A DNA stretch of 64,000 nucleotides from an uncultured Candidatus Saccharibacteria bacterium (lineage in GTDB: Bacteria > Patescibacteriota > Minisyncoccia > Minisyncoccales > GWA2-46-15). The stretch is from contig CAZKCH010000001.1 of the NCBI GenBank assembly GCA_964551525.1, forward strand, positions 1,831 to 65,830. Direction: 5' to 3'. The notes below the pieces were generated by a model. The model saw only the letters and a list, made by a program, of their open reading frames with translations, did no database searches and was not told where the DNA came from. A program made the translations under genes and the position numbers. Positions 27,068 through 47,966 of this stretch are shown here, in pieces (within the stretch, counting starts at the first letter, position 1; each line of letters opens with the position of its first letter).

Positions 27068-27611
27068 TTCGGGGAAGAATTATTTTTGAGGATTTGATCC
27101 TGGTCCAGGATGAACGCTGGCGGCGTGGATAAGGCATGCAAGTTGAACGCTCACCTGATTTTTCGCAAGAAAAGTTGGGTGGGAGTGGCAGATTGGTTAG
27201 TAACACGTGGGTAACTTACTCCGAGGACAGGAATAGTCCGCCGAAAGGCGGGGTAATTCCTGATAGAAATGAGGGGTCGCAAGACATTCTCATTTAAAAC
27301 CCGTCCCGCAAGGGATAGGGGCCACGGAAAAGGCCTGCGGCCTATCAGCTAGTTGGTGAGGTAACGGCCCACCAAGGCAATGACGGGTAGGGGAAGTGAG
27401 AGCTTGTTCCCCAACAAAGACACTGAAACATGGGTCTTACTCCTACGGGAGGCAGCAGTCGAGAATATTCGGCAATGGGGGAAACCCTGACCGAGCGACG
27501 CCGCGTGAGTGAAGAAGGCCTTCGGGCTGTAAAACTCTTTTTTGAGGGAAGAATCCCGAGCGCAAGCGAGGGATGACGGTACCTCAAGAATAAGGGGATG
27601 CAAATTCTGTG

Positions 27612-28481
27612 GTCGATCCGCTCAAAATCGTAAGCGAAGATCGACGGGCGCAGAATAGTCGTGGTAACACGGCTTAAGTAAACTTGGCTCATATGCTGGA
27701 AGCTATTTAAGAAGCGGCATTAGCCATCGGGCTAATTTTCTTAATAGTAATCAGCAGGGAAGTTCGATATAATGGAGAAATGAACAAAAAACAAAGAGAC
27801 ATAATTCTCGGAACATTATTGGGAGACGGGTGGATCGAAAAACAAGGGTCCATTCGTTTCAAACAATGTCTAAAGCATAAAGAATATATCTTTTGGCTAT
27901 ACGGGGAATTAAAAAATCTTTGTCGTAGTTCTCCCACACAAAGACGAGACAATAAACAATGGTATTTCCAAACCAGAAGCAATGACGAAACGCGCTTTTA
28001 TCGATCTATTTTTTATCGGGGTGTTAAAAAACGAGTCCCGAAAAATATAGGAAAATTGATAAAATCTGCACTAAGTTTGGCTATCTGGTTCATGGATGAT
28101 GGAACAATAGATTGGAGAGAAAAAAGTCATTATGCTTTCCGTCTAACTACAAATTGTTTCTCGATGAGCGATAACCGACTATTAATTGAAATGCTGAAAA
28201 AGAGATTTGGCGTTAAAACAACGCTCCAAACAACATTGATTAGAGGAAAAAGATATCCAAGGATATATATCGGCAAAGATGGAAGAGGAAAATTCGCAAA
28301 TCTAATAGAACCATTCGTATTAAATTGTTTTCGTTATAAATTACCTCCATTTCTTCGTAACCCCTCAGAGACTGTTCGGTGATGAACCGACGTTAACGGT
28401 GAAACATATTATCCGTTAAAATACGCCGAGCCCCGTTTCAAAAAAACGGGTGATGGTATAGTCCAATAAAATTATTTATTA
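27612..28481 (+). mobile_element. 16S intron 1 (probable group I) inserted just upstream of the GCCAGCAGCCGCGG block
   Basis: About 870 nt with no 16S homology, between ...gcaaattctgtg and gccagcagccgcgg. Contains an HE ORF and the shared aacggtgaaa motif. Confidence 0.6.
27780..28382 (+). CDS. LAGLIDADG homing endonuclease (two-motif)
   Basis: ILGTLLGDGWIEK and IWFMDDGTID LAGLIDADG motifs. Located entirely within the 16S insertion. Confidence 0.75.
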   Translation: MNKKQRDIILGTLLGDGWIEKQGSIRFKQCLKHKEYIFWLYGELKNLCRSSPTQRRDNKQWYFQTRSNDETRFYRSIFYRGVKKRVPKNIGKLIKSALSLAIWFMDDGTIDWREKSHYAFRLTTNCFSMSDNRLLIEMLKKRFGVKTTLQTTLIRGKRYPRIYIGKDGRGKFANLIEPFVLNCFRYKLPPFLRNPSETVR

Positions 28482-29032
28482 GCCAGCAGCCGCGGTAAGA
28501 CAGAATCCCCAAGCGTTATCCGGATTTACTGGGCGTAAAGCGTCTGTAGGCGCCTTGTTGCATCTTTGGTTAAATTTTCGGGGCTCAACCCTGAAGCTGC
28601 CAAAGACATGGACAGGGTAGAGGGCGTTAGGAGTTGACGGAACGGTCGGTGTAGGGGTGAAATCCATTGATATCGACCGGAACACCAAAAGCGAAGGCAG
28701 TCAACTAAGACGACCCTGACGCTGAAAGACGAAAGCGTGGGCATAAAAAAGGATTAGATACCCTTGTATTCCACGCCCTAAACCATGGAGACTGGCTTCT
28801 TGAAGTGTCGACCCTTCAGGTGGCGAAGCTAACGCGTTAAGTCTCCCGCCTGGGAAGTACGATGGCAACATTAAAACTCAAAGGAATAGACGGGGACTCA
28901 CACAAGCGGTGGATCATGTGGCTCAATTCGACAACAAACGAGGAACCTTACCAGGGCTAGAAACCGTAGCGGACAGCTTACTGAAAAGCGAGCTTTCTCA
29001 CAAGGACCGCTATGGCAGGTACTGCATGGTTG

Positions 29033-29857
29033 ATCCCTAAGCTATTGCTGCTTGGGATACGACCCTTTTCGCCGTAAGGCGAATCGAAAAACCAGCTCAT
29101 AACGGCGAACCCCTAACCAAAAACTTATGGTAAAATGAACTATAAGAACTAAGGCGGGCAATGCCGTGGGAAGTACGAACACTAATTTTTGCAATTTCTT
29201 TAAGGGAGAAGAGAATGCTTATATTCTCGGCCTTTGGTGCGCTGATAGTTATTGGTGGTCAAGTTCAGTAGGATTAAGCAATACCAATCCATATCTGATC
29301 GAAAGAACTAAAAAGTTTTTAAGAAACTTTTTCCCGGAAGTAAGAATAAAATTTAACAGAAACCATATTTTTGTTAATAGCAGGCCATTATTAAGAGACT
29401 TCGTTATTGCTAAAAACAATCTTGATCGTCTTAAAAAACCAGGTATGATTAAGGCCTATTTCGCCGGCCGTTTTGACGGCGATGGTTCTGTAGACAAGGA
29501 TTTCAGAAAAGATTGCCGAATAGTTTATGGCAAGCTGAACGAAGCAGAAATGGATAAAAAGCTATTAAGAAGAATGGGAATCAGAAAAACAAAAATATAC
29601 TATTACAAAAGCGCAAAAACATTTTGCTTATATATATCTCGTTACGAAACGAAAAAATTCTAGACAATATTTATATTCATTCTACAAAGTTGCAAAAATT
29701 AGTGTCCGTACCCCGTAGAGACTTAACTCTCGCCAAGGACCAATTAAGAGAGTTAGATGGCGGAAAAACCAAAAACCGTCATAAAACGCTGGCCTCCGCA
29801 TAATTATATGCGGAAGATGGCATAGTCCATACTACAAGTAATTGTAAGAAAATATGG
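29033..29857 (+). mobile_element. 16S intron 2 (probable group I) inserted in the CATGGTTG|TCGTCAGC region (near E. coli position 1050)
   Basis: Exon sequence catggttg ... tcgtcagcaggtcccgtgagg is restored after removing about 825 nt. Contains an HE ORF and ccgtgggaag / aacggcgaa motifs. Confidence 0.6.
29166..29663 (+). CDS. LAGLIDADG-type homing endonuclease
   Basis: YFAGRFDGDGSV motif and a degenerate first motif YILGLWCADS. Located within the 16S insertion. Confidence 0.6.
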   Translation: MGSTNTNFCNFFKGEENAYILGLWCADSYWWSSSVGLSNTNPYLIERTKKFLRNFFPEVRIKFNRNHIFVNSRPLLRDFVIAKNNLDRLKKPGMIKAYFAGRFDGDGSVDKDFRKDCRIVYGKLNEAEMDKKLLRRMGIRKTKIYYYKSAKTFCLYISRYETKKF

Positions 29858-30412
29858 TCGTCAGCAGGTCCCGTGAGGGTCTCCCTTAAATGGGGAAACC
29901 TGCGCAACCCTTACTCTGTGTTTTAAATGTCACAGGGAACTGCCCGGGATAACTGGGAGGAAGATGAGGATGACGCCAAATCAGCATGGTCCTTGATGCC
30001 CTGGGCCGCACACGTGATACAATGGAGCCGACAATGGGTTTGCCAAGCCGTAAGGCGGAGCTAACCCCATCAAACGACTCCTTAGTTCGGATTGAGGGCT
30101 GAAACTCGCCCTCATGAAGCCGGAATCGCTAGTAATCGGGAATCAGCTATGTCCCGATGAATATGTTCCTGAGTCTTGTACTCACCGCCCGTCACGTGAG
30201 ACGAGCCGGGAGTGGCCGAAGGCGCCTGTAAGGGCGACTAAGCCAAACTCGGTGAGAAGCACGAAGTCGTAACAAGGCACGCGTAGCGGAAGCTGTGCGT
30301 GGATCATTACTTTTTTTCTAGACTTTTTGTCTAGGAGCGTCGATCATAGTTGAAAATTGAGAATTCTATTTTCAACTGCGGACAATTGACTGGAATGTCT
30401 TTAAACTACAGT

Positions 30413-30481: not shown

Positions 30482-31837
30482 TTAATGAAAAAGCTTAATT
30501 ATGGCTTGGTAAATATTGCTAATCTCCGCGGGCATGACCAAACCGTAACTGATGGGCACGATTAAAATAAAAACAATCAGGGTTATCATTAAAAAGCCGT
30601 AAAAAATCCAAGGTCGCTTTTCCCATAGCTTTTCTCCGGCCAAAGCCAAAAGCAAAATAGCAAAACCCAAGGCGGGCAAATAGTGGTATAGAAAAGCAAT
30701 GCGGCTGACAAAAATAAAAGGCAAAAGATTGGCAAAATAGCCCAGCAATAGGATGCCTTTGTGTTTAAGCTTTCGGAAAATGCTCAATAAAACCGCCAAT
30801 CCTGACAGCCACCAGATTAAAGGATTACCCCAGAGATAAATATTGGCTGTTTCGCTCGGGCCCGTCGAACGGGCCCAATACCAAACCGGCTTTTTGTCTA
30901 TTGGCCATTCGGTCCAGGCACTGGCGTCAGGATGGGTCTTTGCTAAACCGGAATTATAAGACCACATCATTTTATTCAGCTCGACGAACTTCTGTAAAAA
31001 GGGCATGGTGGTTATTTTTTCTTTGGAAAAAACATTGCCTTTCAGTGTTGTCTGGAAACTACGACTCATAAAGGCATCGCCGGGCCCGGATTGGTCAAGA
31101 AGCTTAAAATGAGCCGCAAAAGGAAGGGCATAAATAATCGCGACCAGAAATAAAGAAATGACAACTTCAACGGAAAACTTTAGGAATCGTTTAAAATTAA
31201 TGTTTTTGAGAAAATTAATAAAGGACAAGAAGAGATTGATGCCGAGAAAGGCCAGGCCGGTCCATTTAATAGAGAAAGCCAGCCCCGCCAAGGCCATGGC
31301 AAGAAAGTAAAGCAAATGCTTTTTTAGCCGGTTTTCCTGCTTTTGAGAAATCAGAAAAACAAGTATCGATAAAAAACCAAAAAGAAACAGAAAGCTGTCA
31401 ACTAAAATAAATTTTGATTCGATTAAAAAAGCATTGTCGAAAATGACCAGAAACCCGGCCAGAAAAGCCGCTTTCTTCGATCCGCCCAAGACCCGGATAA
31501 TGCCGTAAAAAATCAAAGGCAATAAGGCGCCGAAAAGAGCGGACAGAAAGCGCAAAACAAAAAGCGTTTTGGCGTCCATGGCTTCCCCAATTTGAGCAAA
31601 CCCGCCAAAATTTACTGGCGTAAAATTTAGGCGGGCAAGCCCGCTAATCATCAATTTCCCCAAGGGCGGATGAATATCAAAATAATATTGATGGGTGGAA
31701 TAGGCGGAAACGAACTTGCCGAAATGAACCTCGTCAAAGACCACCTCGGCCGGATAGGCCAAAAAAATAAACCTCGTTGCTAAAGCAAGGATTAGTAAAA
31801 TGATTAGGGGCAGTTTTTCTTTCATCGCTAAGGACAA
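30482..31837 (-). CDS. GT39/PMT-family glycosyltransferase (dolichyl-phosphate-mannose protein mannosyltransferase-like, GT-C fold)
   Basis: VVFDEVHFGKF (DE motif) and HPPLGKLM motif in the first extracytoplasmic loop. About 11 TM helices. Confidence 0.7.
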   Translation of the reverse strand: MSLAMKEKLPLIILLILALATRFIFLAYPAEVVFDEVHFGKFVSAYSTHQYYFDIHPPLGKLMISGLARLNFTPVNFGGFAQIGEAMDAKTLFVLRFLSALFGALLPLIFYGIIRVLGGSKKAAFLAGFLVIFDNAFLIESKFILVDSFLFLFGFLSILVFLISQKQENRLKKHLLYFLAMALAGLAFSIKWTGLAFLGINLFLSFINFLKNINFKRFLKFSVEVVISLFLVAIIYALPFAAHFKLLDQSGPGDAFMSRSFQTTLKGNVFSKEKITTMPFLQKFVELNKMMWSYNSGLAKTHPDASAWTEWPIDKKPVWYWARSTGPSETANIYLWGNPLIWWLSGLAVLLSIFRKLKHKGILLLGYFANLLPFIFVSRIAFLYHYLPALGFAILLLALAGEKLWEKRPWIFYGFLMITLIVFILIVPISYGLVMPAEISNIYQAIIKLFH

Positions 31838-33798
31838 ATTACTTTTAATATTTTCCGCGGCCCGGCCGGCGTTTCTTGGCTAAAAACAATCTCAACATGG
31901 TCTGAAACTGAAAGATTATCGCTGCCGGGAAAACTCTTTCTTGAATCATCGTCTAAGATAATATAATCAATTTTTTCAACGCAAGCCAAGCCCAAGTCGT
32001 TGTTAAATATCTTTTTCGCATTAGATTGGTGCTGGCTAATGTCCAAACCCTCGGTGATAAGCCAGCTTTCATAACCGAGATAAATTGGCCGGCCAGCCAG
32101 AAACAACGGCATCGGGTCCACTAAGGCCGGCGTCAAAAACAAAGAATCGGGTAAAGTATTTTCTTTTATCCATTGGCCGGCTCGAACTTTTTCTTGATCA
32201 GAGTCAGAATAGCCGAAATAATGGCGATAGAGCAATCTTGCGGAAAAATCAATGGCGCCCGCCAAAGTGCCGAAAAACACAATGGCGATAATGACCAATA
32301 AACCGATAACTTTTTTCTTTGAAAGAAAAACCAAAATCGGGCCGATGCCAAAAATAATTGCCAGAATCCACCAGTAAAAAAGGATTTTGCCGTTATCAAA
32401 GGGCCAGACCTGAAAGAGAAATAAGTTGGGAAGAATAAACAAAACCATTGAGGCAATAAGAAACTCCGATTTAAAACCGAGGTCAAGCTTTTTCCGAAAA
32501 CGAGAAAGAATAAAAAGAAAAAGAGCCGCCAGCCAAAACCAGAAAACAACACCGAAATTCTTTGACCAAAATACGAAAACATTGCTATCAGTGCCGGCTA
32601 ACGTCAGCCAGCCGAGCCACGGCCTAATATTATCGCCCAAACCGTTGGCCGAATTGAAATACAATAACTGGGGAAGAGCCAAAATAGCGGCCAGCCCGGC
32701 AAAAATCAGCCAGGACTTTTTGTTTTTCAAGTTAAACCAAAACAAAGCCGCCATCAGTAAAAACAAAGCTAAAAAGCTATGAATATGAATAAAGGGTAAA
32801 AGTCCGGCAAAAATGCCAAATCGCCAGAAATCCTTGTCCCTACCGTAATGGTAAATACCCAAAAGAATAAGGCAGAAAACAGCCAAACCAAGAGAAAAAG
32901 TCCGCTGGTGCGATAAAAAAGAAATAATCGGCACAATCCAAACAATATTATCGGCGGCTTCTTTCTCAATTGGTTTGCCGCCGGTCCGATTGTCCAAATG
33001 AGTGTATTCGTGCGGCGGATTAGTGAAAAAAGTGCCAAGCGCGGAAAAACCATTTTGCTGCACGAAACCGGAAACATCTTTGAAAAAAGTAATGAATCCC
33101 AAACCGGCGCCGAAAAGAATCAAAACCAAAACCAGAATAGCAACGCCCCTTGAACCGAGAAATCTTCCGGTAAGAGAAAACAATAAAACAATCGCGGACA
33201 GGCCGGAAATCAAAAGAGGCAAGGCGTAAGCGAAAACGCGGCTGGCGCCGAGAAAACGATAGATGGCGGAAATAAAATTAAGCAGAAACGGATAGGTAAG
33301 CGGTGCGCCGGCCATTAAGGGGTGCTGTAAGATAAAATGCTTAGCCGTGGCGAATCTTTCAATAATACTCAAATGCAGGGCGGTGTCGCCCCAGCTGAGA
33401 AAAGAAGTTCGCAACGTGTTATCGGGCGCCTCGAAAAGCACAGTTTTAATCAAAAGAAAATAAAGAACCAAGATTGCCAATAAGGGCAAAAGCCAAAAAA
33501 TTTGCCGCCAGTCCTGTTTTTGCAATTCCGTGGCTATTTCAATAAAAAAACATCGCAATGATTTAATCCGCAAGGCAAGAACGACCAAGGCCAAGGCGCT
33601 GAAAAGGATAATGGCCAAAAACAACGAGCCGGTGGCCAAGGCGGCCAAAAGGATCAAAAAACCGCTGACAATTAAACCCGTAATCAGGCTGGCAAAAAAT
33701 CTTTCGAAACAAGACAATTTTTCCTGCCGGTCAAAAAAACCGAAAACCGCCAGGCCGAAAAGAAATTGGAAAATAAGAAAAATTAAAGGGATGATCAT
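31828..33798 (-). CDS. large polytopic membrane protein, putative GT-C-like glycosyltransferase
   Basis: More than 14 TM helices plus a C-terminal soluble domain. Overlaps the downstream PMT-like gene by 10 nt (operon). No firm family assignment. Confidence 0.3.
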   Translation of the reverse strand: MIIPLIFLIFQFLFGLAVFGFFDRQEKLSCFERFFASLITGLIVSGFLILLAALATGSLFLAIILFSALALVVLALRIKSLRCFFIEIATELQKQDWRQIFWLLPLLAILVLYFLLIKTVLFEAPDNTLRTSFLSWGDTALHLSIIERFATAKHFILQHPLMAGAPLTYPFLLNFISAIYRFLGASRVFAYALPLLISGLSAIVLLFSLTGRFLGSRGVAILVLVLILFGAGLGFITFFKDVSGFVQQNGFSALGTFFTNPPHEYTHLDNRTGGKPIEKEAADNIVWIVPIISFLSHQRTFSLGLAVFCLILLGIYHYGRDKDFWRFGIFAGLLPFIHIHSFLALFLLMAALFWFNLKNKKSWLIFAGLAAILALPQLLYFNSANGLGDNIRPWLGWLTLAGTDSNVFVFWSKNFGVVFWFWLAALFLFILSRFRKKLDLGFKSEFLIASMVLFILPNLFLFQVWPFDNGKILFYWWILAIIFGIGPILVFLSKKKVIGLLVIIAIVFFGTLAGAIDFSARLLYRHYFGYSDSDQEKVRAGQWIKENTLPDSLFLTPALVDPMPLFLAGRPIYLGYESWLITEGLDISQHQSNAKKIFNNDLGLACVEKIDYIILDDDSRKSFPGSDNLSVSDHVEIVFSQETPAGPRKILKVICP

Positions 33799-34478: not shown

Positions 34479-34550
34479 GGGCGTGTGGCTCAACGGTAGA
34501 GCGCGTTCCTGATAAGAACGAGGCCGAAGGTCCGACTCCTTCCACGCCCA
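34479..34550 (+). tRNA. tRNA-Ile (anticodon GAU)
   Basis: Acceptor gggcgtg/cacgccc, D-arm gctc-aacggta-gagc, anticodon loop ctgataa, T-arm gaagg-tccgact-ccttc. Confidence 0.85.
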
Positions 34551-34603
34551 TAACACGAGTATTTAGGATTTAGAAGTTAGAAGATAGAAAACGCCTGATT
34601 TCC

Positions 34604-34676
34604 GGGCCGTTGGCGCAGTTGGTAGCGCGCTTCATTTGCAATGAAGAGGTCGCCGGTCCGAATCCGGCACGGTCCA
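34604..34676 (+). tRNA. tRNA-Ala (anticodon UGC)
   Basis: Acceptor gggccgt/acggtcc with G3:U70, anticodon loop tttgcaa, T-arm gccgg-tccgaat-ccggc. Confidence 0.85.
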
Positions 34677-34830
34677 CAGTAGTAGTTTTTTAGAATTTAG
34701 AGTTTAGTATTTAGAGTTTCATTTCCCAGGGGTGCCGGATCACCGCAGAGCGGGATCCCGTCTTACGGGATCACCGCGAAGCGGGACTCCGCTACGCGGA
34801 GGTGGCCAATCGGGACAAAAAATACAAAAA

Positions 34831-35079
34831 ATGTATACTGTTTATATCTTAAGAAGTTTAAAATCTAAAAGGTTCTATATTGGACAAACAAATAATATCG
34901 CGGATAGATTAAGAAGACATAATCGAGGATTGGTCAAATCAACAAAATGGTTTATACCTTGGGAAATAGTCATAACAGAAAACTTTAATAATAGAAGCGA
35001 CGCATATAAACGCGAACAAGAGATCAAAAAATTTAAGTCCGGAATATTGTTTAAAAAAATAATTACCAGGGATGGCTGA
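34831..35079 (+). CDS. GIY-YIG nuclease domain protein (small, standalone)
   Basis: YTVYILRS...KRFYIGQTNNIADRLRRHN is the GIY-YIG core. Likely start is the ATG at 34831 (the track ORF starts at 34732 inside a direct-repeat region). The 3' end overlaps tRNA-Tyr by 14 nt. Confidence 0.55.
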   Translation: MYTVYILRSLKSKRFYIGQTNNIADRLRRHNRGLVKSTKWFIPWEIVITENFNNRSDAYKREQEIKKFKSGILFKKIITRDG

Positions 35080-35138
35080 GCGGTTAAGGCGCTGGTCTGT
35101 AAAACCAGTCTAGGTAGGTTCAACTCCTACTCCCTGGA
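35066..35138 (+). tRNA. tRNA-Tyr (anticodon GUA), type I (short variable arm), C1:G72
   Basis: Acceptor ccaggga/tccctgg, D-arm with GG, anticodon stem ctggt/accag with loop ctgtaaa, 5-nt variable loop, T-arm gtagg-ttcaact-cctac. Confidence 0.65.
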
Positions 35139-42925: not shown

Positions 42926-43805
42926 TCAAAAATACTCTTAGATTTAAACATTCCTATGAATACCATTCTTTATACTCTCACCAAAAGAAGCGGCTAATTC
43001 CTTAGGATTTTTTATTGCCTAAGCGACCGCTTCGAAGCGGTTTTTTCTTTTCTCGCGCCGGCATTGACGCTGAATAAAAAATTGGCGGTAAAACCGGATT
43101 GAGAACCAAAAAACGAAAGAAAAAGAACGGACTTTGACAACTTAATAAAATTCTAGCTAATTAAGTAAAAACTCCTTAAATTTACAGACGAATCTGGTGA
43201 ATCTAAGGAGGGTAAGAAATTGTGGTTACAACAGGTTGATGGCGGATGCCTTGGAAAGTCGAGGCGACGAAGGACGTGGCGTGACTGCGATAAGCTCCGG
43301 GGAGGTGTCAAGCAACCCGTGAACCGGAGATGTCCGAATCTGGAAACAGGGCCGCGCAAAACGCGGTCGACCCCGAGCGCAAGTGAGGGGTAGCGTACCT
43401 GGGGAAGTAAAACCTTTCAGTACCCAGAGGAAAATAAAACAATGTTTCGTGTTTTACACGAGATGATTCCCTTAGTAGCGGCGAGTGAAAAGGGAAATAG
43501 CCTAGAGTTCTAAGCTTCGCAAGAAGCTTGGAGCAGTTAAAAGAGAGCGACGCCTGAAGTTTTCCCCTTTATCCCGAGAGAAATCGAGGGACAAGGAGAA
43601 AACTTTGGAAAGAGTAAAAAAATTGATTGTTAGCCAAAGTCCCCTGGAAAGGAACACCAAAGAGGGTAATAGTCCCGTAGGCGAAAACGATCAATCTCTT
43701 AGTCTCTTAGTCCCGCAAGGGACAAATCTTAAGTACTATAGGGCATGATAAATCTATAGGAAGTCGGCTGAACTACTTTCAAGCCAAGGCTAAATACTCG
43801 ACTTT

Positions 43806-43844
<39 letters not shown>

Positions 43845-45279
43845 CAGCCCGGCGAGGGCGATGAAATAGTACCTGAAACCATCTAACCTACAAAGAGTCG
43901 GAGCCCCACAGAGCGCAAGCTTTTGCGGGGTGACGGCGTACTTTTTGGAGAACGAGCCAACGAGTTGTTGTGCATAGTTGTCTAACCCCGTTAAACGGGG
44001 GAAGGCAAAGCGAAAGCAAGCGTTAATAGCGCGACTAAAACTGTGCACCCCAGACCCGAAGCCAAGCGAGCTTGCCAGCGTCAGGGTGAATCCCGCCGAA
44101 GGGCGAGAAGAAGCCCGTACCTGTGAGCCGTGCAATACTCTAGGACGAACGGTGGCACGAAGAGAAAACCTAAACGAGCTTGGTAATAGCTGGTTCTTCC
44201 CGAAATAGCTTTTGGACTAGCTCCGCCGTATTATATTTTTCAGGGGTAGAGCACTGAAAAGAATATCGTGGCTTTTAGCCAGGTATTCTTATCAAACTCC
44301 GAATACTGAAAAATTCAGGCGGAAGTAAGAACCCGGGCGCTAAGGTCCGGGCTCAAAAGGGAAACAGCCCAGACCTTCATCTAAGGCCCCCAAGTTTAAA
44401 CTAAGTGCTAGGAAGGAAGTGATTTTCCTATGATAGTCAGGAGGTGAGCTTAGAAGCAGCTACCCTTTAAAAAGTGCGTAACAGCTTACTGATTAAGGAA
44501 TTTCGCACCAAAGATTAACGGGGCTCAAGTTTAACGCCGAAGATAAGGGCCCGCCCACATCTGCAAAGTTGTGGCGGGCGGTAGGGAAGCGTCCTTTGTT
44601 CAGCGAAGCCCCTCCGTAAGGTCGGGGTGGAGAACAAGGGAGTGAGAATGTTGGCATGAGTAACCGCAATCCGGGTGAGATCCTCGGACACCGAAAGCCC
44701 AAGATTTCCTTGGCAATGATTTTCAGCCAGGGGTTAGGCGGCCCTAACACTGCGACCAAATGGCCTCAGTGGATGGACAGCCGGTTAATATTCCGGCCCT
44801 TCGGTTGTTTTTCAAAAGGGTGACGCAATCAAAGTTCTTGATAGGATTATTGGATTTCCGAGAGTCGAGATTTATCTCGACCGTTTCAAGAATCAGATTG
44901 CCAAGAAAAACCCTGAGATTTAAAACAACCGGATCCGTATCGCAAACCGACACAGGCAGGCAGGTCGAGTAGACCAAGGTGAACGGGTGAAAGCTCCTGA
45001 AGGAACTCGGCAAAAAAGCTACCCGTAAGTTCGCAAGATGGGTTGCCCCGACCCGCAAGGGTTATGGGGCCGCAGCTAACGATTCCTTAGCGACTGTTTA
45101 TCAAAAACACAGGCTCCTGCTTAACTCGTAAGAGGAAATATAGGAGCCGAGACCTGACCAGTGCTGGAACGTCAAACTCGACGATTTTACCGCAAGGTAA
45201 AACTGATCGAGCTAAGCGCCAGTGAACGTCCGCTCTAACTCTGAGAGTGTTAAAGTAGCGTAACCCCTTGTCAGGTAAG

Positions 45280-46035
45280 AGATTTGCCTGTGCTCACAGC
45301 AGTGAGCAATAAATCCGGCTAATAACGGTGAAATCCTCGTTAGAGTCCCGCATCAAGGGCGGGACGTTGAAAACAAGATAATACCGTGGGAAGTCCCGTT
45401 AAACGGGACCCCGTAACGACTGACGTCGCCGATAGCTATTGGCGACCGAGATAGTAGATGCTATGATGAAATAACATTTACGGATTTAATGAAAAAAATA
45501 CTATCATATGCCGGCACTAAACAATTCTAAATCAAAGAAAAATCTACCAGTATATATTTCTGGTTATGTAGACGGGGAAGGATGCTTTAGTGTTTCCTTC
45601 TCAAAAAGAGAAAAACTGTCAGTGGGATGGGAAACAAAACCAAGTTTTGCCGTAGGGCAAAACTATGACCGATCAGAAGTAATTAAATTACTAAAGCTTT
45701 ATTTAAATTGCGGAAGTATAAGACGTGATTATTCTGACAAAACATTGAAATTCGAGGTCCGTAGTTTAAATGACCTGGTAGAAAAAGTAATTCCTCATTT
45801 TCGTCAGTACCCTTTATTATCAAATAAGCGAAAAGATTTCGATTTGTTTGTAAAAATATGCGGGCTGATGAAAAAAGAAAAACACCTTCAAAGAAGGGGA
45901 TTAAAAAAGATTGTCAATTTCGCGTATCAAATGAACGCAAGCGGTAAACGAAAATACAAAAAAGAGGAAATTACAAAAGAATTGTCTATTTGAAGATATA
46001 GTCTGCACCATAAGAAATTATGAGACAATGTGAAG
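45280..46035 (+). mobile_element. 23S intron (probable group I) in domain IV, GGGTAAG|TTCCGACC site (about E. coli 1917-1923)
   Basis: About 756 nt with no 23S homology restore the universal sequence when removed. Contains ctaataacggtgaaa and taataccgtgggaag motifs, shared with the other introns. Confidence 0.6.
45508..45993 (+). CDS. LAGLIDADG homing endonuclease
   Basis: LPVYISGYVDGEGCFSVSF is a classic LAGLIDADG motif. 161 aa, within the 23S insertion. Confidence 0.8.
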   Translation: MPALNNSKSKKNLPVYISGYVDGEGCFSVSFSKREKLSVGWETKPSFAVGQNYDRSEVIKLLKLYLNCGSIRRDYSDKTLKFEVRSLNDLVEKVIPHFRQYPLLSNKRKDFDLFVKICGLMKKEKHLQRRGLKKIVNFAYQMNASGKRKYKKEEITKELSI

Positions 46036-46568
46036 TTCTGACCCGCATGAAAGGTTTCACGACTAAGGAACTGTCTCCAGGAGTTGCCCGGTGAAAATGC
46101 AGTAGGGGTGAAGATGCCCCTTACCTGCGGCTAGACGGAAAGACCCCGAGAGCTTCACTGTAAGGTGGTATTGGATTTTGGGTTTGGATGCGTAGCGTAG
46201 TAGGGAGGATTTGAAGTCCCGTTTTTGGACGGGATGGATCCGACAATGAAACACCTATCTTTTAAACTCTCAATTCTAATTCCGCTGATGAAGCGGATAA
46301 CAGTGCCACCCCGGCAGTTTAAGTGGGGCACTTGCCTCCCAAAAAGTACTGGAGGCGTTTAAAGGTCGGCTAGCTCCGGATGGAAATCGGAGCGATAGGG
46401 CAAAGCCATAAGCCGGCTTTACTGCAAGGCGGATATGCCGCGCAGTTGGGAAACCAGAACTTAGTGAACCGATGCGTCATAGTAGAAGGCGCAAAGATCA
46501 ACAGACAAAAGTTACCTCGGGGATAACAGGCTAGTAGGGCCCGCGAGTCCACATCTACGGCCCTGTTC

Positions 46569-46601
<33 letters not shown>

Positions 46602-46730
46602 GTGAAGCAGCTCCCAAGGGTCTGGCTGTTCGCCAGTTAAAGTGGTACGTGAGCTGGGTTCAAACCGTCGCGAGACAGGTTGGTCCCTATCTACCGCAGG
46701 CGTTGAGTCTTGAGGAGAGTCTCGGACAGT

Positions 46731-47527
46731 AAATAAAATTGCTGCTTCAGAGAGTAATCTCTGATGACAAATTGGCTAATAACGGTGAAACCTTCATTGG
46801 AATTATGCGGAAAGCGTATTTTTCCGCTTGTAGGTCCAACGGAAAAATGATATGATTTTCTTGAGGACCGCATAATTTTAAATAAGGTAATACCGTGGGA
46901 AGACAAACAAAAATACCCAAAACAGATTTAGCTTATATCGCTGGTTTTTTGGACGGTGACGGAAGTGTTATAGTCCAAATGAAAAACAGAAGGCACAATC
47001 CAAGAGGATGGCGATTAATGTTCACAATCTGCTTTTATCAGGATACGCGTCATGAAAAACCGCTATCCTGGATAAAAAAGACATTAGGAATAGGTTATAT
47101 TTCTCGCCGGAAAGATGGAATTACCGAACTAAGAATTAATGGTTTTGGAAGAACCAAAGAGATTCTGGAAAATTTATCACCATATATCAAGTTTAAGAAA
47201 AAACAGGTAAACATTTTACTAACGATCTTAAAAAAGATCGTAGGCAAGAATTTTCCTGATTTGACCAGAAAACAGCGGTTAAAAATAGCAGATATGATTT
47301 ATGAATCAAGACAGTTAACCTATCAATCTGGTTGGAAAAAATTCTCTAAGTCAAAAAGGGAATTAAGAGAAAGATTGGGTTTTTAATTAAAGTTTGTCCC
47401 CGTAACGACTTTCCGCATTAATGCGGAGGATGGCATAGTTTTATACGCCATAATACGCCAACCACGCGTTCAATTTATGAACGCGCGGAAGATATAGTCT
47501 AAGCTTGTAGAAATACAAGGCAACTTG
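46731..47527 (+). mobile_element. 23S intron (probable group I) inserted in the sarcin-ricin loop (AGU|ACGAGAGGACC)
   Basis: Removing about 797 nt restores ggacagtacgagaggacc. Same conserved core motifs (ggctaataacggtgaaa, aataccgtgggaag). Confidence 0.6.
46895..47386 (+). CDS. LAGLIDADG homing endonuclease
   Basis: LAYIAGFLDGDGSVIVQ motif. 163 aa, within the 23S insertion. Confidence 0.8.
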   Translation: MGRQTKIPKTDLAYIAGFLDGDGSVIVQMKNRRHNPRGWRLMFTICFYQDTRHEKPLSWIKKTLGIGYISRRKDGITELRINGFGRTKEILENLSPYIKFKKKQVNILLTILKKIVGKNFPDLTRKQRLKIADMIYESRQLTYQSGWKKFSKSKRELRERLGF

Positions 47528-47852: not shown

Positions 47853-47966
47853 GAGGTGGGGACTATACCGAGGTTGTCCCACTCGTTCCCATTCCGAACA
47901 CGACCGTGAAATACCTCATGGCTGATGATAGTCCTTCCGGGCGAAAGTAGGTAGTCCCCACCCCTT
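47853..47966 (+). rRNA. rrf: 5S rRNA
   Basis: ccgaacacgaccgtgaaatacc and gggcgaaagtaggtagtccccaccc blocks. Helix I pairing ggtgggga/tccccacc. 100 nt downstream of the 23S. Confidence 0.75.

Follow-up and report, generated by a model that had tools for sequence, protein, structure and literature searches.

Two Predicted Group I Introns, Each with a LAGLIDADG Gene, in the 530 Loop and in Helix 34 of a Candidatus Saccharibacteria 16S rRNA Gene

Introduction

What interrupts the 16S rRNA gene of an uncultured Candidatus Saccharibacteria bacterium, and at which bases would the interruptions be removed? The gene lies in a 64,000-nucleotide stretch of DNA, the window (GenBank assembly GCA_964551525.1, contig CAZKCH010000001.1, positions 1,831 to 65,830 of the forward strand). 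Coordinates below are those of the window, and the features of the 16S gene and its inserts are all on the plus strand. The answer to the first question is very probably that two mobile group I introns, each with a LAGLIDADG homing-endonuclease gene in the loop of its P6 helix, interrupt the single 16S gene of the window. The second question has a straightforward answer for one of the introns and a puzzling one for the other.

The Interrupted 16S rRNA Gene

The interrupted gene extends from 27090 to 30314. It is ~3225 nt long unspliced and 1529 nt spliced, with exons of 522, 549 and 458 nt. The Rfam bacterial small-subunit (SSU) rRNA model, RF00177, matches it in two pieces, 27090-27642 (model positions 9-546; 384 bits) and 28362-30314 (729 bits), the second of which has an 826-nt gap within helix 34. 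The inserts are thus located in two places, insert 1 in the 530 loop and insert 2 in helix 34.

The exon borders were set by the SSU model, by reading of the sequence and by a BLAST comparison of the spliced sequence with 16S genes of relatives. Exon 1 (27090-27611) ends in ...AAUUCUGUG, where the final GUG is G515-U516-G517 of E. coli (...GCAAAUUCUGUG); its end would be 27610 if the splice site follows U516. Exon 2 (28483-29031; E. coli 518-1060) starts with the universal CCAGCAGCCGCGGUAA and ends in ...CUGCAUGGUU, at U1060. Exon 3 (29857-30314; E. coli 1061 to the 3' end) starts with GUCGUCAGC. Taking out 871 and 825 nt restores conserved 16S sequence, GUGCCAGC at site 1 and GGUUGUCGUC at site 2, and the intron-less sequence across site 1 reads ...AATTCTGTGCCAGCAGCCGCGG.... 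The spliced 1529-nt sequence aligns end to end with related 16S genes.

Insert 1, of 871 nt, follows E. coli U516 or G517, and insert 2, of 825 nt, follows U1060. Because a G stands on each side of insert 1, two registers are possible for it, 27611-28481 and 27612-28482. The segment 27442-28511, which includes both junctions of insert 1, is identical in an independent Logan assembly (contig L160, from run SRR13007705).

A first-pass annotation of this DNA had read the two inserts as introns in universally conserved 16S sequence, and the split of the SSU-model match, the sequence reading and the alignment of the spliced gene bear it out. Its ranges fared unequally. Removal of the second, 29033-29857, gives the correct product, although by group I rules the intron is 29032-29856. 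The first, 27612-28481, is one base short; its removal leaves GUG+GCCAGC (GUGGCCAGC), with one extra G.

Both Inserts as Probable Group I Introns

Both inserts are assigned to group I on the basis of a hand-built structure, its covariation, and matches of shorter homologues to the Rfam group I model, RF00028. By this model the introns would be compact ribozymes of ~250-300 nt, subgroup-IA-like in having helices P7.1 and P7.2.

Read by eye, the two folds have the same parts: a guide that is complementary to the exon and includes a U·G wobble, a GUAA-capped P2, and helices P3, P4, P5 and P8. The R element is CAGAGACU in intron 1 and GUAGAGACU in intron 2, and the S element is AUAGUCC in both; R and S form P7, with a bulged A and the G-C pair that binds guanosine. 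In each insert the modeled helices amount to the complete group I set, P1 to P10, with P3 and P7 in a pseudoknot. Between P7 and P3' stand the P7.1 and P7.2 hairpins, a hallmark of subgroup IA (the intron 1 pair is seen in its sequence). In both introns the P6 stem has the form GGG-AA-GUNCG ... CGNAC-CCC, with an open reading frame (ORF) in its loop.

Intron 1 (871 nt; 27612-28482, or 27611-28481 in the alternative register) is modeled from the hand fold, from covariation of the core in 16 homologues and from the RF00028 match of one homologue, L142. Its internal guide sequence, GGCGCAGAAU at 27647-27656, is predicted to pair with the end of exon 1, ...AUUCUGUG, to form P1, and with CC of exon 2 to form P10. 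In P1 (27604-27611/27649-27656), AUUCUGUG pairs with CGCAGAAU, and U516 (27610) forms a wobble with G27650. The hand model places the remaining helices as follows: P2, with the GUAA loop, at 27658-63/27668-73; P3 at 27683-88/28425-30; P4 at 27695-99/27751-55; P6 at 27757-66/28356-64; P7 at 28368-73/28460-64; P7.1 at 28376-80/28386-90; P7.2 at 28393-99/28413-19; P8 at 28432-37/28445-50; and P9 at 28465-70/28475-80.

Intron 2 (825 nt; 29032-29856), after U1060 in helix 34, is modeled with covariation in 38 homologues and the RF00028 match of the homologue L004. Its P1 is at 29028-32/29060-64, with the wobble U29031·G29061, and a P1 extension follows at 29033-42/29050-58. The other helices of the hand model are P2 (29068-73/29078-83), P3 (29092-96/29788-92), P4 (29102-06/29163-67), P5 (29111-13/29156-58), P6 (29168-77/29707-14), P7 (29718-23/29824-28), P7.1 (29724-31/29748-55), P7.2 (29757-63/29776-82), P8 (29795-802/29807-14), P9.0 (29829-30/29854-55) and P9 (29832-37/29842-47), and omegaG is at 29856. 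An extended P7, pairing 29715-17 with 29830-32, was dropped for P9.0, which covaries.

The fold of intron 2 was scored on an alignment of 38 distinct homologues from metagenome contigs, with the ORF cut out of the P6 loop. Across its 64 pairs in 12 helices, 93.6% of cells are paired, versus 36-46% with slid partners, and compensatory changes are found at 45 of the 64 pairs; none of 500 shuffles equaled this. Covarying pairs make up 5/5 of P3, 8/8 of P7.1 and 7/7 of P7.2, the last two helices being paired in 79% and 85% of cells, respectively. For the core of intron 1, 16 homologues give 97.6% of cells paired, versus 28-51% with slid partners, and 8 of 26 pairs show compensatory change; P7.2 is excluded from this count because MAFFT mis-registers it. 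P7 is invariant in both sets of homologues. In addition, exon and guide change together among the homologues of intron 1, UCUGUG/CGCAGA in some versus CUCGUG/CGCGAG in others.

Shorter relatives are matched by the Rfam model itself. Among the homologues of intron 1, L142 is 399 nt long and keeps no more than a remnant of the ORF; it scores 54.2 bits against RF00028, the gathering score of which is 50. An ORF-less homologue of intron 2, the 249-nt L004:3778-4026, has a plain hairpin as its P6. Its score is 42.3 bits (E=1e-9), and the helix assignments that the model makes on it agree with the hand model.

The Homing-Endonuclease ORFs

The first-pass annotation had also placed a LAGLIDADG protein in each insert, and profile matches agree: ORF1, in intron 1, matches PF03161 (E=3e-36; 125 bits against a curated cut-off of 25), and ORF2, in intron 2, matches PF14528 (E=2.6e-9; 37.6 bits against a cut-off of 22.5).

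ORF1 (27780-28382) is an intact two-motif LAGLIDADG_2 frame of 200 aa in the P6 loop, with similarity to I-SceI (E=1e-10). Its last 9 codons overlap P6', P7 and P7.1. ORF1 is full length, and the 97 clusters of its homologues are 199-234 aa long. At least 90% of homologues keep the motif residues G15, D16 and D106, and none departs from D107 or G108.

ORF2 (29166-29663), in the P6 loop of intron 2, is a degenerate LAGLIDADG_3 frame of 165 aa, read from a GTG and aligned with 25 homologues. At least 600 clusters of ORF2 homologues were found, ~194 aa long versus the 165 aa in the window. In the alignment, the motif residue D27 is kept in at least 90% of the homologues, and D104-G107 are invariant. 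ORF2 is damaged at both ends. The position of the homologues' ATG reads GCG (29154-56), and a 1-nt deletion near 29660 (TTTCTA to TTCTAG) makes a stop that cuts off ~30 C-terminal residues. Three-frame translation against the homologues shows that the usual C-terminus, ...LDNIYIHSTKLQKLVSVPRRDL, runs on in another frame, as an out-of-frame remnant (LDNIYIHSTKLQKLVSVPRRDLTLA) at 29660-29735. P6' and P7 of the ribozyme core are still contained in that remnant. Read in this way, the endonuclease gene of intron 1 is intact, and in intron 2 the RNA core appears to be still under selection while the endonuclease gene is decaying, unless the missing nucleotide is an error made in assembling a homopolymer run.

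Homologues of both ORFs come overwhelmingly from records of Patescibacteria, the Candidate Phyla Radiation (CPR). Of the CPR homing enzymes, I-ShaI, which comes from a 23S intron, is the only one to have been assayed. One ORF1 homologue (51% identity) is on a 1232-nt contig that is binned as a Nanoarchaeota metagenome-assembled genome (MAG) (L012; JAUSIK010000021.1). The contig carries a bacterial-type 16S fragment and a 516/517 intron, and it is probably mis-binned.

A Proposed Mechanism and Its Rivals

Established group I and homing biology suggests how the two introns would behave. After transcription, the intron RNA would fold, and exogenous guanosine would attack the 5' splice site held in P1. 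The freed 5' exon would then attack the 3' splice site, so that the exons are ligated and the mature 16S sequence is normal. At the DNA level, the endonuclease would cleave the corresponding site in 16S alleles that lack the intron, and the intron would be copied in during repair.

Several points weigh against this account. Splicing, endonuclease activity and homing are all inferred. Since ORF2 is truncated, intron 2 has probably lost the ability to move by itself. For intron 1, sequence reading finds no register that restores GUGCCAGC and at the same time has a U(-1)·G and a terminal G. Finally, the Rfam check that the first-pass annotation had proposed came back empty: neither insert is matched by RF00028 in 27500-30000, even at E<=10. 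The miss is attributed to the ~500-600-nt ORFs in the P6 loops.

The silence of RF00028 on the window would also suit a different reading, in which the inserts are bacterial-type intervening sequences, excised by RNase III without ligation to leave a fragmented 16S rRNA. Such elements occur in bacterial 23S genes, and Tsurumaki et al. (PMC11270868) suspect them at some CPR sites. An RNase III-processed intervening sequence would occupy a variable helix tip and have a long stem and no ribozyme core. The inserts instead break the universally conserved 530 loop and helix 34, each has a complete, covarying group I core in which P1 is formed with the exon, and homologues of both are matched by RF00028. 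This reading is therefore highly improbable. Group II introns were likewise set aside, as the inserts have no Rfam group II match and do have a group I core.

Could the inserts be assembly chimeras, or the gene a dead rRNA pseudogene? The window probably comes from a metagenome assembly, and the frameshift of ORF2 adjoins a homopolymer run. Yet more than 60 independent contigs carry these introns in these positions, and across intron 1 a second, independent assembly agrees with the window at every base. The exons are otherwise undamaged, scoring 384 and 729 bits on the SSU model, and 23S, 5S and tRNA genes are nearby. An artifact or a dead gene is scarcely credible against this evidence. Two group I introns remain the preferred reading.

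Splice Sites of Intron 2

Intron 2, read from its sequence as 29032-29856, follows U1060 and is canonical at both splice sites. The U·G of P1 is found in 38/38 homologues, and the exon pair next to it changes from U-A to C-G in 9 of them. At the other end, P9.0 changes from A-U to G-C, with G29856 directly after it. Five homologues read ...GGUU|A..., in which the 5' exon cannot supply G1061; the 5' site is thus placed after U1060. One member of the 1060 family departs from the pattern: L128:369-1164 has A, not G, in the omega position (…AAUAUA-G|UCGUC) and G as its first intron base, the same omega pattern as is seen in the 516/517 family.

The Splice Register of Intron 1

Nearly all group I introns have a U preceding the 5' splice site and a terminal G. 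In intron 1 the two ends disagree. The wobble at U516, together with the covariation of exon and guide, points to a 5' splice site after U516. That site would put the start of exon 2 at G28482 and make A28481 the last base of the intron. The guanosine-binding pair of P7, on the other hand, is invariant in the intron 1 family (16 homologues), and for that reason a terminal G is expected.

The 3' end was analyzed in 23 distinct introns of the structural type of intron 1. The two bases after AGUCC pair with the third- and fourth-last bases before C518 in 17/23 introns each (A-U in 12, G-C in 5). With the register shifted by one, 0/23 pair, and 30 of 5000 shuffles do as well as the observed register. 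The resulting P9.0 geometry of the 516/517 introns matches that of intron 2, and it places the omega slot of intron 1 at 28481, with G28482 one base later. Across the 23 introns the slot is a G in 10 cases, an A in 9 and a C in 4. Both P9.0 pairs are formed in all 13 of the introns with A or C in the slot, and two further, closer relatives are alike. That is, at least 15 distinct 516/517 introns have A or C in the last position as defined by P9.0 and the wobble, and in each of them a G always follows.

Of the introns with a non-G slot, all except one have a G directly after U516. The base in this position covaries with its guide partner, the pair being mostly G-C, A-U in L010, L019 and L041, and G·U in L142 and L152. 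The informative case is L010, where the first base is A and the slot is also A, a combination that would favor a non-G omega; it is a single contig of a co-assembled MAG. A comparison meant to show that G517 always comes from the 3' side gave no significant difference: among A-first introns 5/6 are GG-ended, versus 11/23 (p~0.14, hand-calculated Fisher test).

We lean slightly towards the view that intron 1 is a group I intron with a non-canonical register. Under this view, either its last base is A28481 (intron 27611-28481), or both sites are slid one base in the 3' direction (27612-28482), in which case the last base of the 5' exon would be G517, in a pair with C27649, and the U·G wobble would fall at position -2. 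The slide would be possible because the first base of the intron and the first base of the exon are both G. The U27610·G27650 wobble in P1, the P9.0 pairing with its failure on shifting, the A and C slots, in all of which both P9.0 pairs are kept, and the invariant P7 pair argue for it, and the L160 contig agrees with the window sequence. Its weakness is that it sets aside one or the other of two features that are near-universal in group I introns. Moreover, an altered position 517 in the mature rRNA is an alternative explanation, and L010, the sole discriminating case, comes from a co-assembly.

For the 516/517 family as a whole, intron 1 included, the proposal that it naturally departs from one of the two group I splice-site rules that are most strongly conserved is a tentative one, to which we give somewhat less than even weight. 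Under it, these introns may either ligate their exons after a non-G terminal base or have both splice sites slid by one base.

Occurrence and Comparison with Known Systems

Group I introns with LAGLIDADG genes were reportedly described in CPR rRNA genes by Brown et al. in 2015. Dozens of loci have introns at the same two sites as the window. Among 47 related loci that can be scored at both, 11 have both introns, 27 only that at 1060, and 9 only that at 516/517, and many of the related 16S genes have further introns at other sites.

The first-pass annotation had called the introns a known CPR feature, and the survey of Tsurumaki et al. 2024 (PMC11270868) agrees: insertions are reported in 48% of 380 CPR 16S genes, with up to 16 per gene, and they cluster at recurrent hot spots, several of which have group I introns. 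LAGLIDADG_2 and LAGLIDADG_3 are both reported there in 16S introns, as are ORF-less and degenerate versions. The same annotation held that the exact sites and the two-intron combination were worth cataloguing. In that respect the locus is not new: the 2024 survey covers such recurrent hot spots, and both sites are occupied in 11/47 loci. Given the published survey and the recurrence at the same sites, both intron families, both sites and their combination are already known and are common in CPR genomes. The site numbers 16IS4-10 of PMC11270868 could not be matched to 516 and 1060. Boundaries there are taken from comparison with E. coli and, as the survey states, may differ from true splice sites, and the parts consulted do not raise the conflict between P1 and P9.0 in the register of the 516/517 family.

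The introns of the window do not differ in any essential way from the CPR rRNA group I introns with LAGLIDADG genes. They share with them the host clade, the gene, the protein families and the hot spots in conserved regions, as well as the presence of several introns per gene and of ORF-less and degenerate-ORF versions. The S516 group I introns of eukaryotic nuclear small-subunit rDNA, e.g., of Naegleria, presumably have the same insertion point as intron 1, after U516 of GUGCCAGC in the 530 loop. They are of IC1/IE type, and some have His-Cys box endonucleases. Intron 1, in contrast, has P7.1 and P7.2 and a LAGLIDADG_2 gene in its P6 loop, and the likeness is one of insertion point.

Subgroup IA introns of the phage T4 td type are found in protein-coding genes and have GIY-YIG or HNH endonucleases. 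In common with the window introns they have P7.1 and P7.2 between P7 and P3', and an endonuclease ORF that is accommodated in the loop of a peripheral helix in the P4-P6 domain. Archaeal rRNA introns, such as those of I-DmoI and I-PorI, form a bulge-helix-bulge that is cut by the tRNA splicing endonuclease. They, too, have small two-motif LAGLIDADG proteins inside rRNA introns at conserved sites; the window inserts have a ribozyme core instead of the bulge-helix-bulge.

Other rRNA Introns and the Surroundings of the 16S Gene

In other CPR genomes the 516 site is also used by group I introns of a second structural type that lacks P7.1 and P7.2 (L112:1469-1734, L134:503-769, L011, L016 and L017), some of which are ORF-less and ~270 nt long. 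L112 scores 64.3 bits against RF00028, in an alignment that mis-assigns P1. L112 and L134, ORF-less and at the same site, were considered as homologues of intron 1 and were left out because, without P7.1/P7.2, they are of a different structural type.

Group II intron domains are found in related 16S genes. RF01998 matches of 42-54 bits (L010:5378-5457, L134:3859-3972 and L004:4604-4686) lie downstream of the last 16S match, near position 1400 of the spliced gene. They may correspond to the group II hot spot that Tsurumaki et al. 2024 (PMC11270868) describe at position 1400.

The rRNA genes of the window are unlinked within 27090-47963: the 16S gene ends at 30314, the 23S gene starts at 43219, and the 5S gene is at 47855-47963. 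The 16S gene is followed by two long minus-strand ORFs (30482-33798; 451 and 656 aa; membrane-protein-like), and tRNA-Ile and tRNA-Ala (34479-34677) and tRNA-Tyr (35066-35138) also lie between 16S and 23S. The 23S gene (43219-46735) is 3517 nt long versus 2925 nt for the model. It contains a group I-like intron at 45260-46032 (5' end approximate) with a 161-aa single-domain LAGLIDADG_1 ORF at 45508-45993 (PF00961, E=1e-24). The core of this intron is like that of intron 2, ACCGUGGGAAGU...CCCCGUAACGACU...GAUAUAGUC, after which the exon resumes with AAGUUCUGACCCGCAUGAAAGG; RF00028 gives weak matches of 25.3 and 14.1 bits on it.

The 3' end of the 16S gene (30295-30320) reads GGAUCAUUACUUUUUUUC and is without the CCUCC anti-Shine-Dalgarno sequence. 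That sequence is mostly missing in the related 16S genes that were fetched; CCTCCTTTC follows GGATCA in only 11 tails, and the others vary. Despite such a tail, GGAGA stands 4 nt upstream of the ATG of ORF1.

Implications

As a catalogue entry the locus adds little: multiple group I introns with LAGLIDADG genes in one CPR 16S gene are amply documented, and hundreds of members of the two families have been sequenced. It does bear on how such introns are counted. The Rfam group I model misses ORF-bearing members, and Rfam-based surveys therefore probably undercount group I introns.

The locus also bears on amplicon surveys. The first-pass annotation had expected a ~3.2 kb gene to be missed or mis-sized in them. 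The length stands, but mis-sizing is limited to amplicons that span 516 or 1060, because the site of the V4 primer 515F, with 17 contiguous matching bases, is still present downstream of intron 1. Amplicons spanning either site (V3-V4, V4-V6 or full length) would be 0.8-1.7 kb too long for this organism, and V4 alone (515F/806R) should be unaffected.

Follow-up is worthwhile on one point only, the departure of the 516/517 family from the canonical splice register. Should this anomaly be confirmed, it would offer ribozyme biochemists a natural case in which to test how a group I intron selects its splice sites through P1, P9.0 and the guanosine-binding site.

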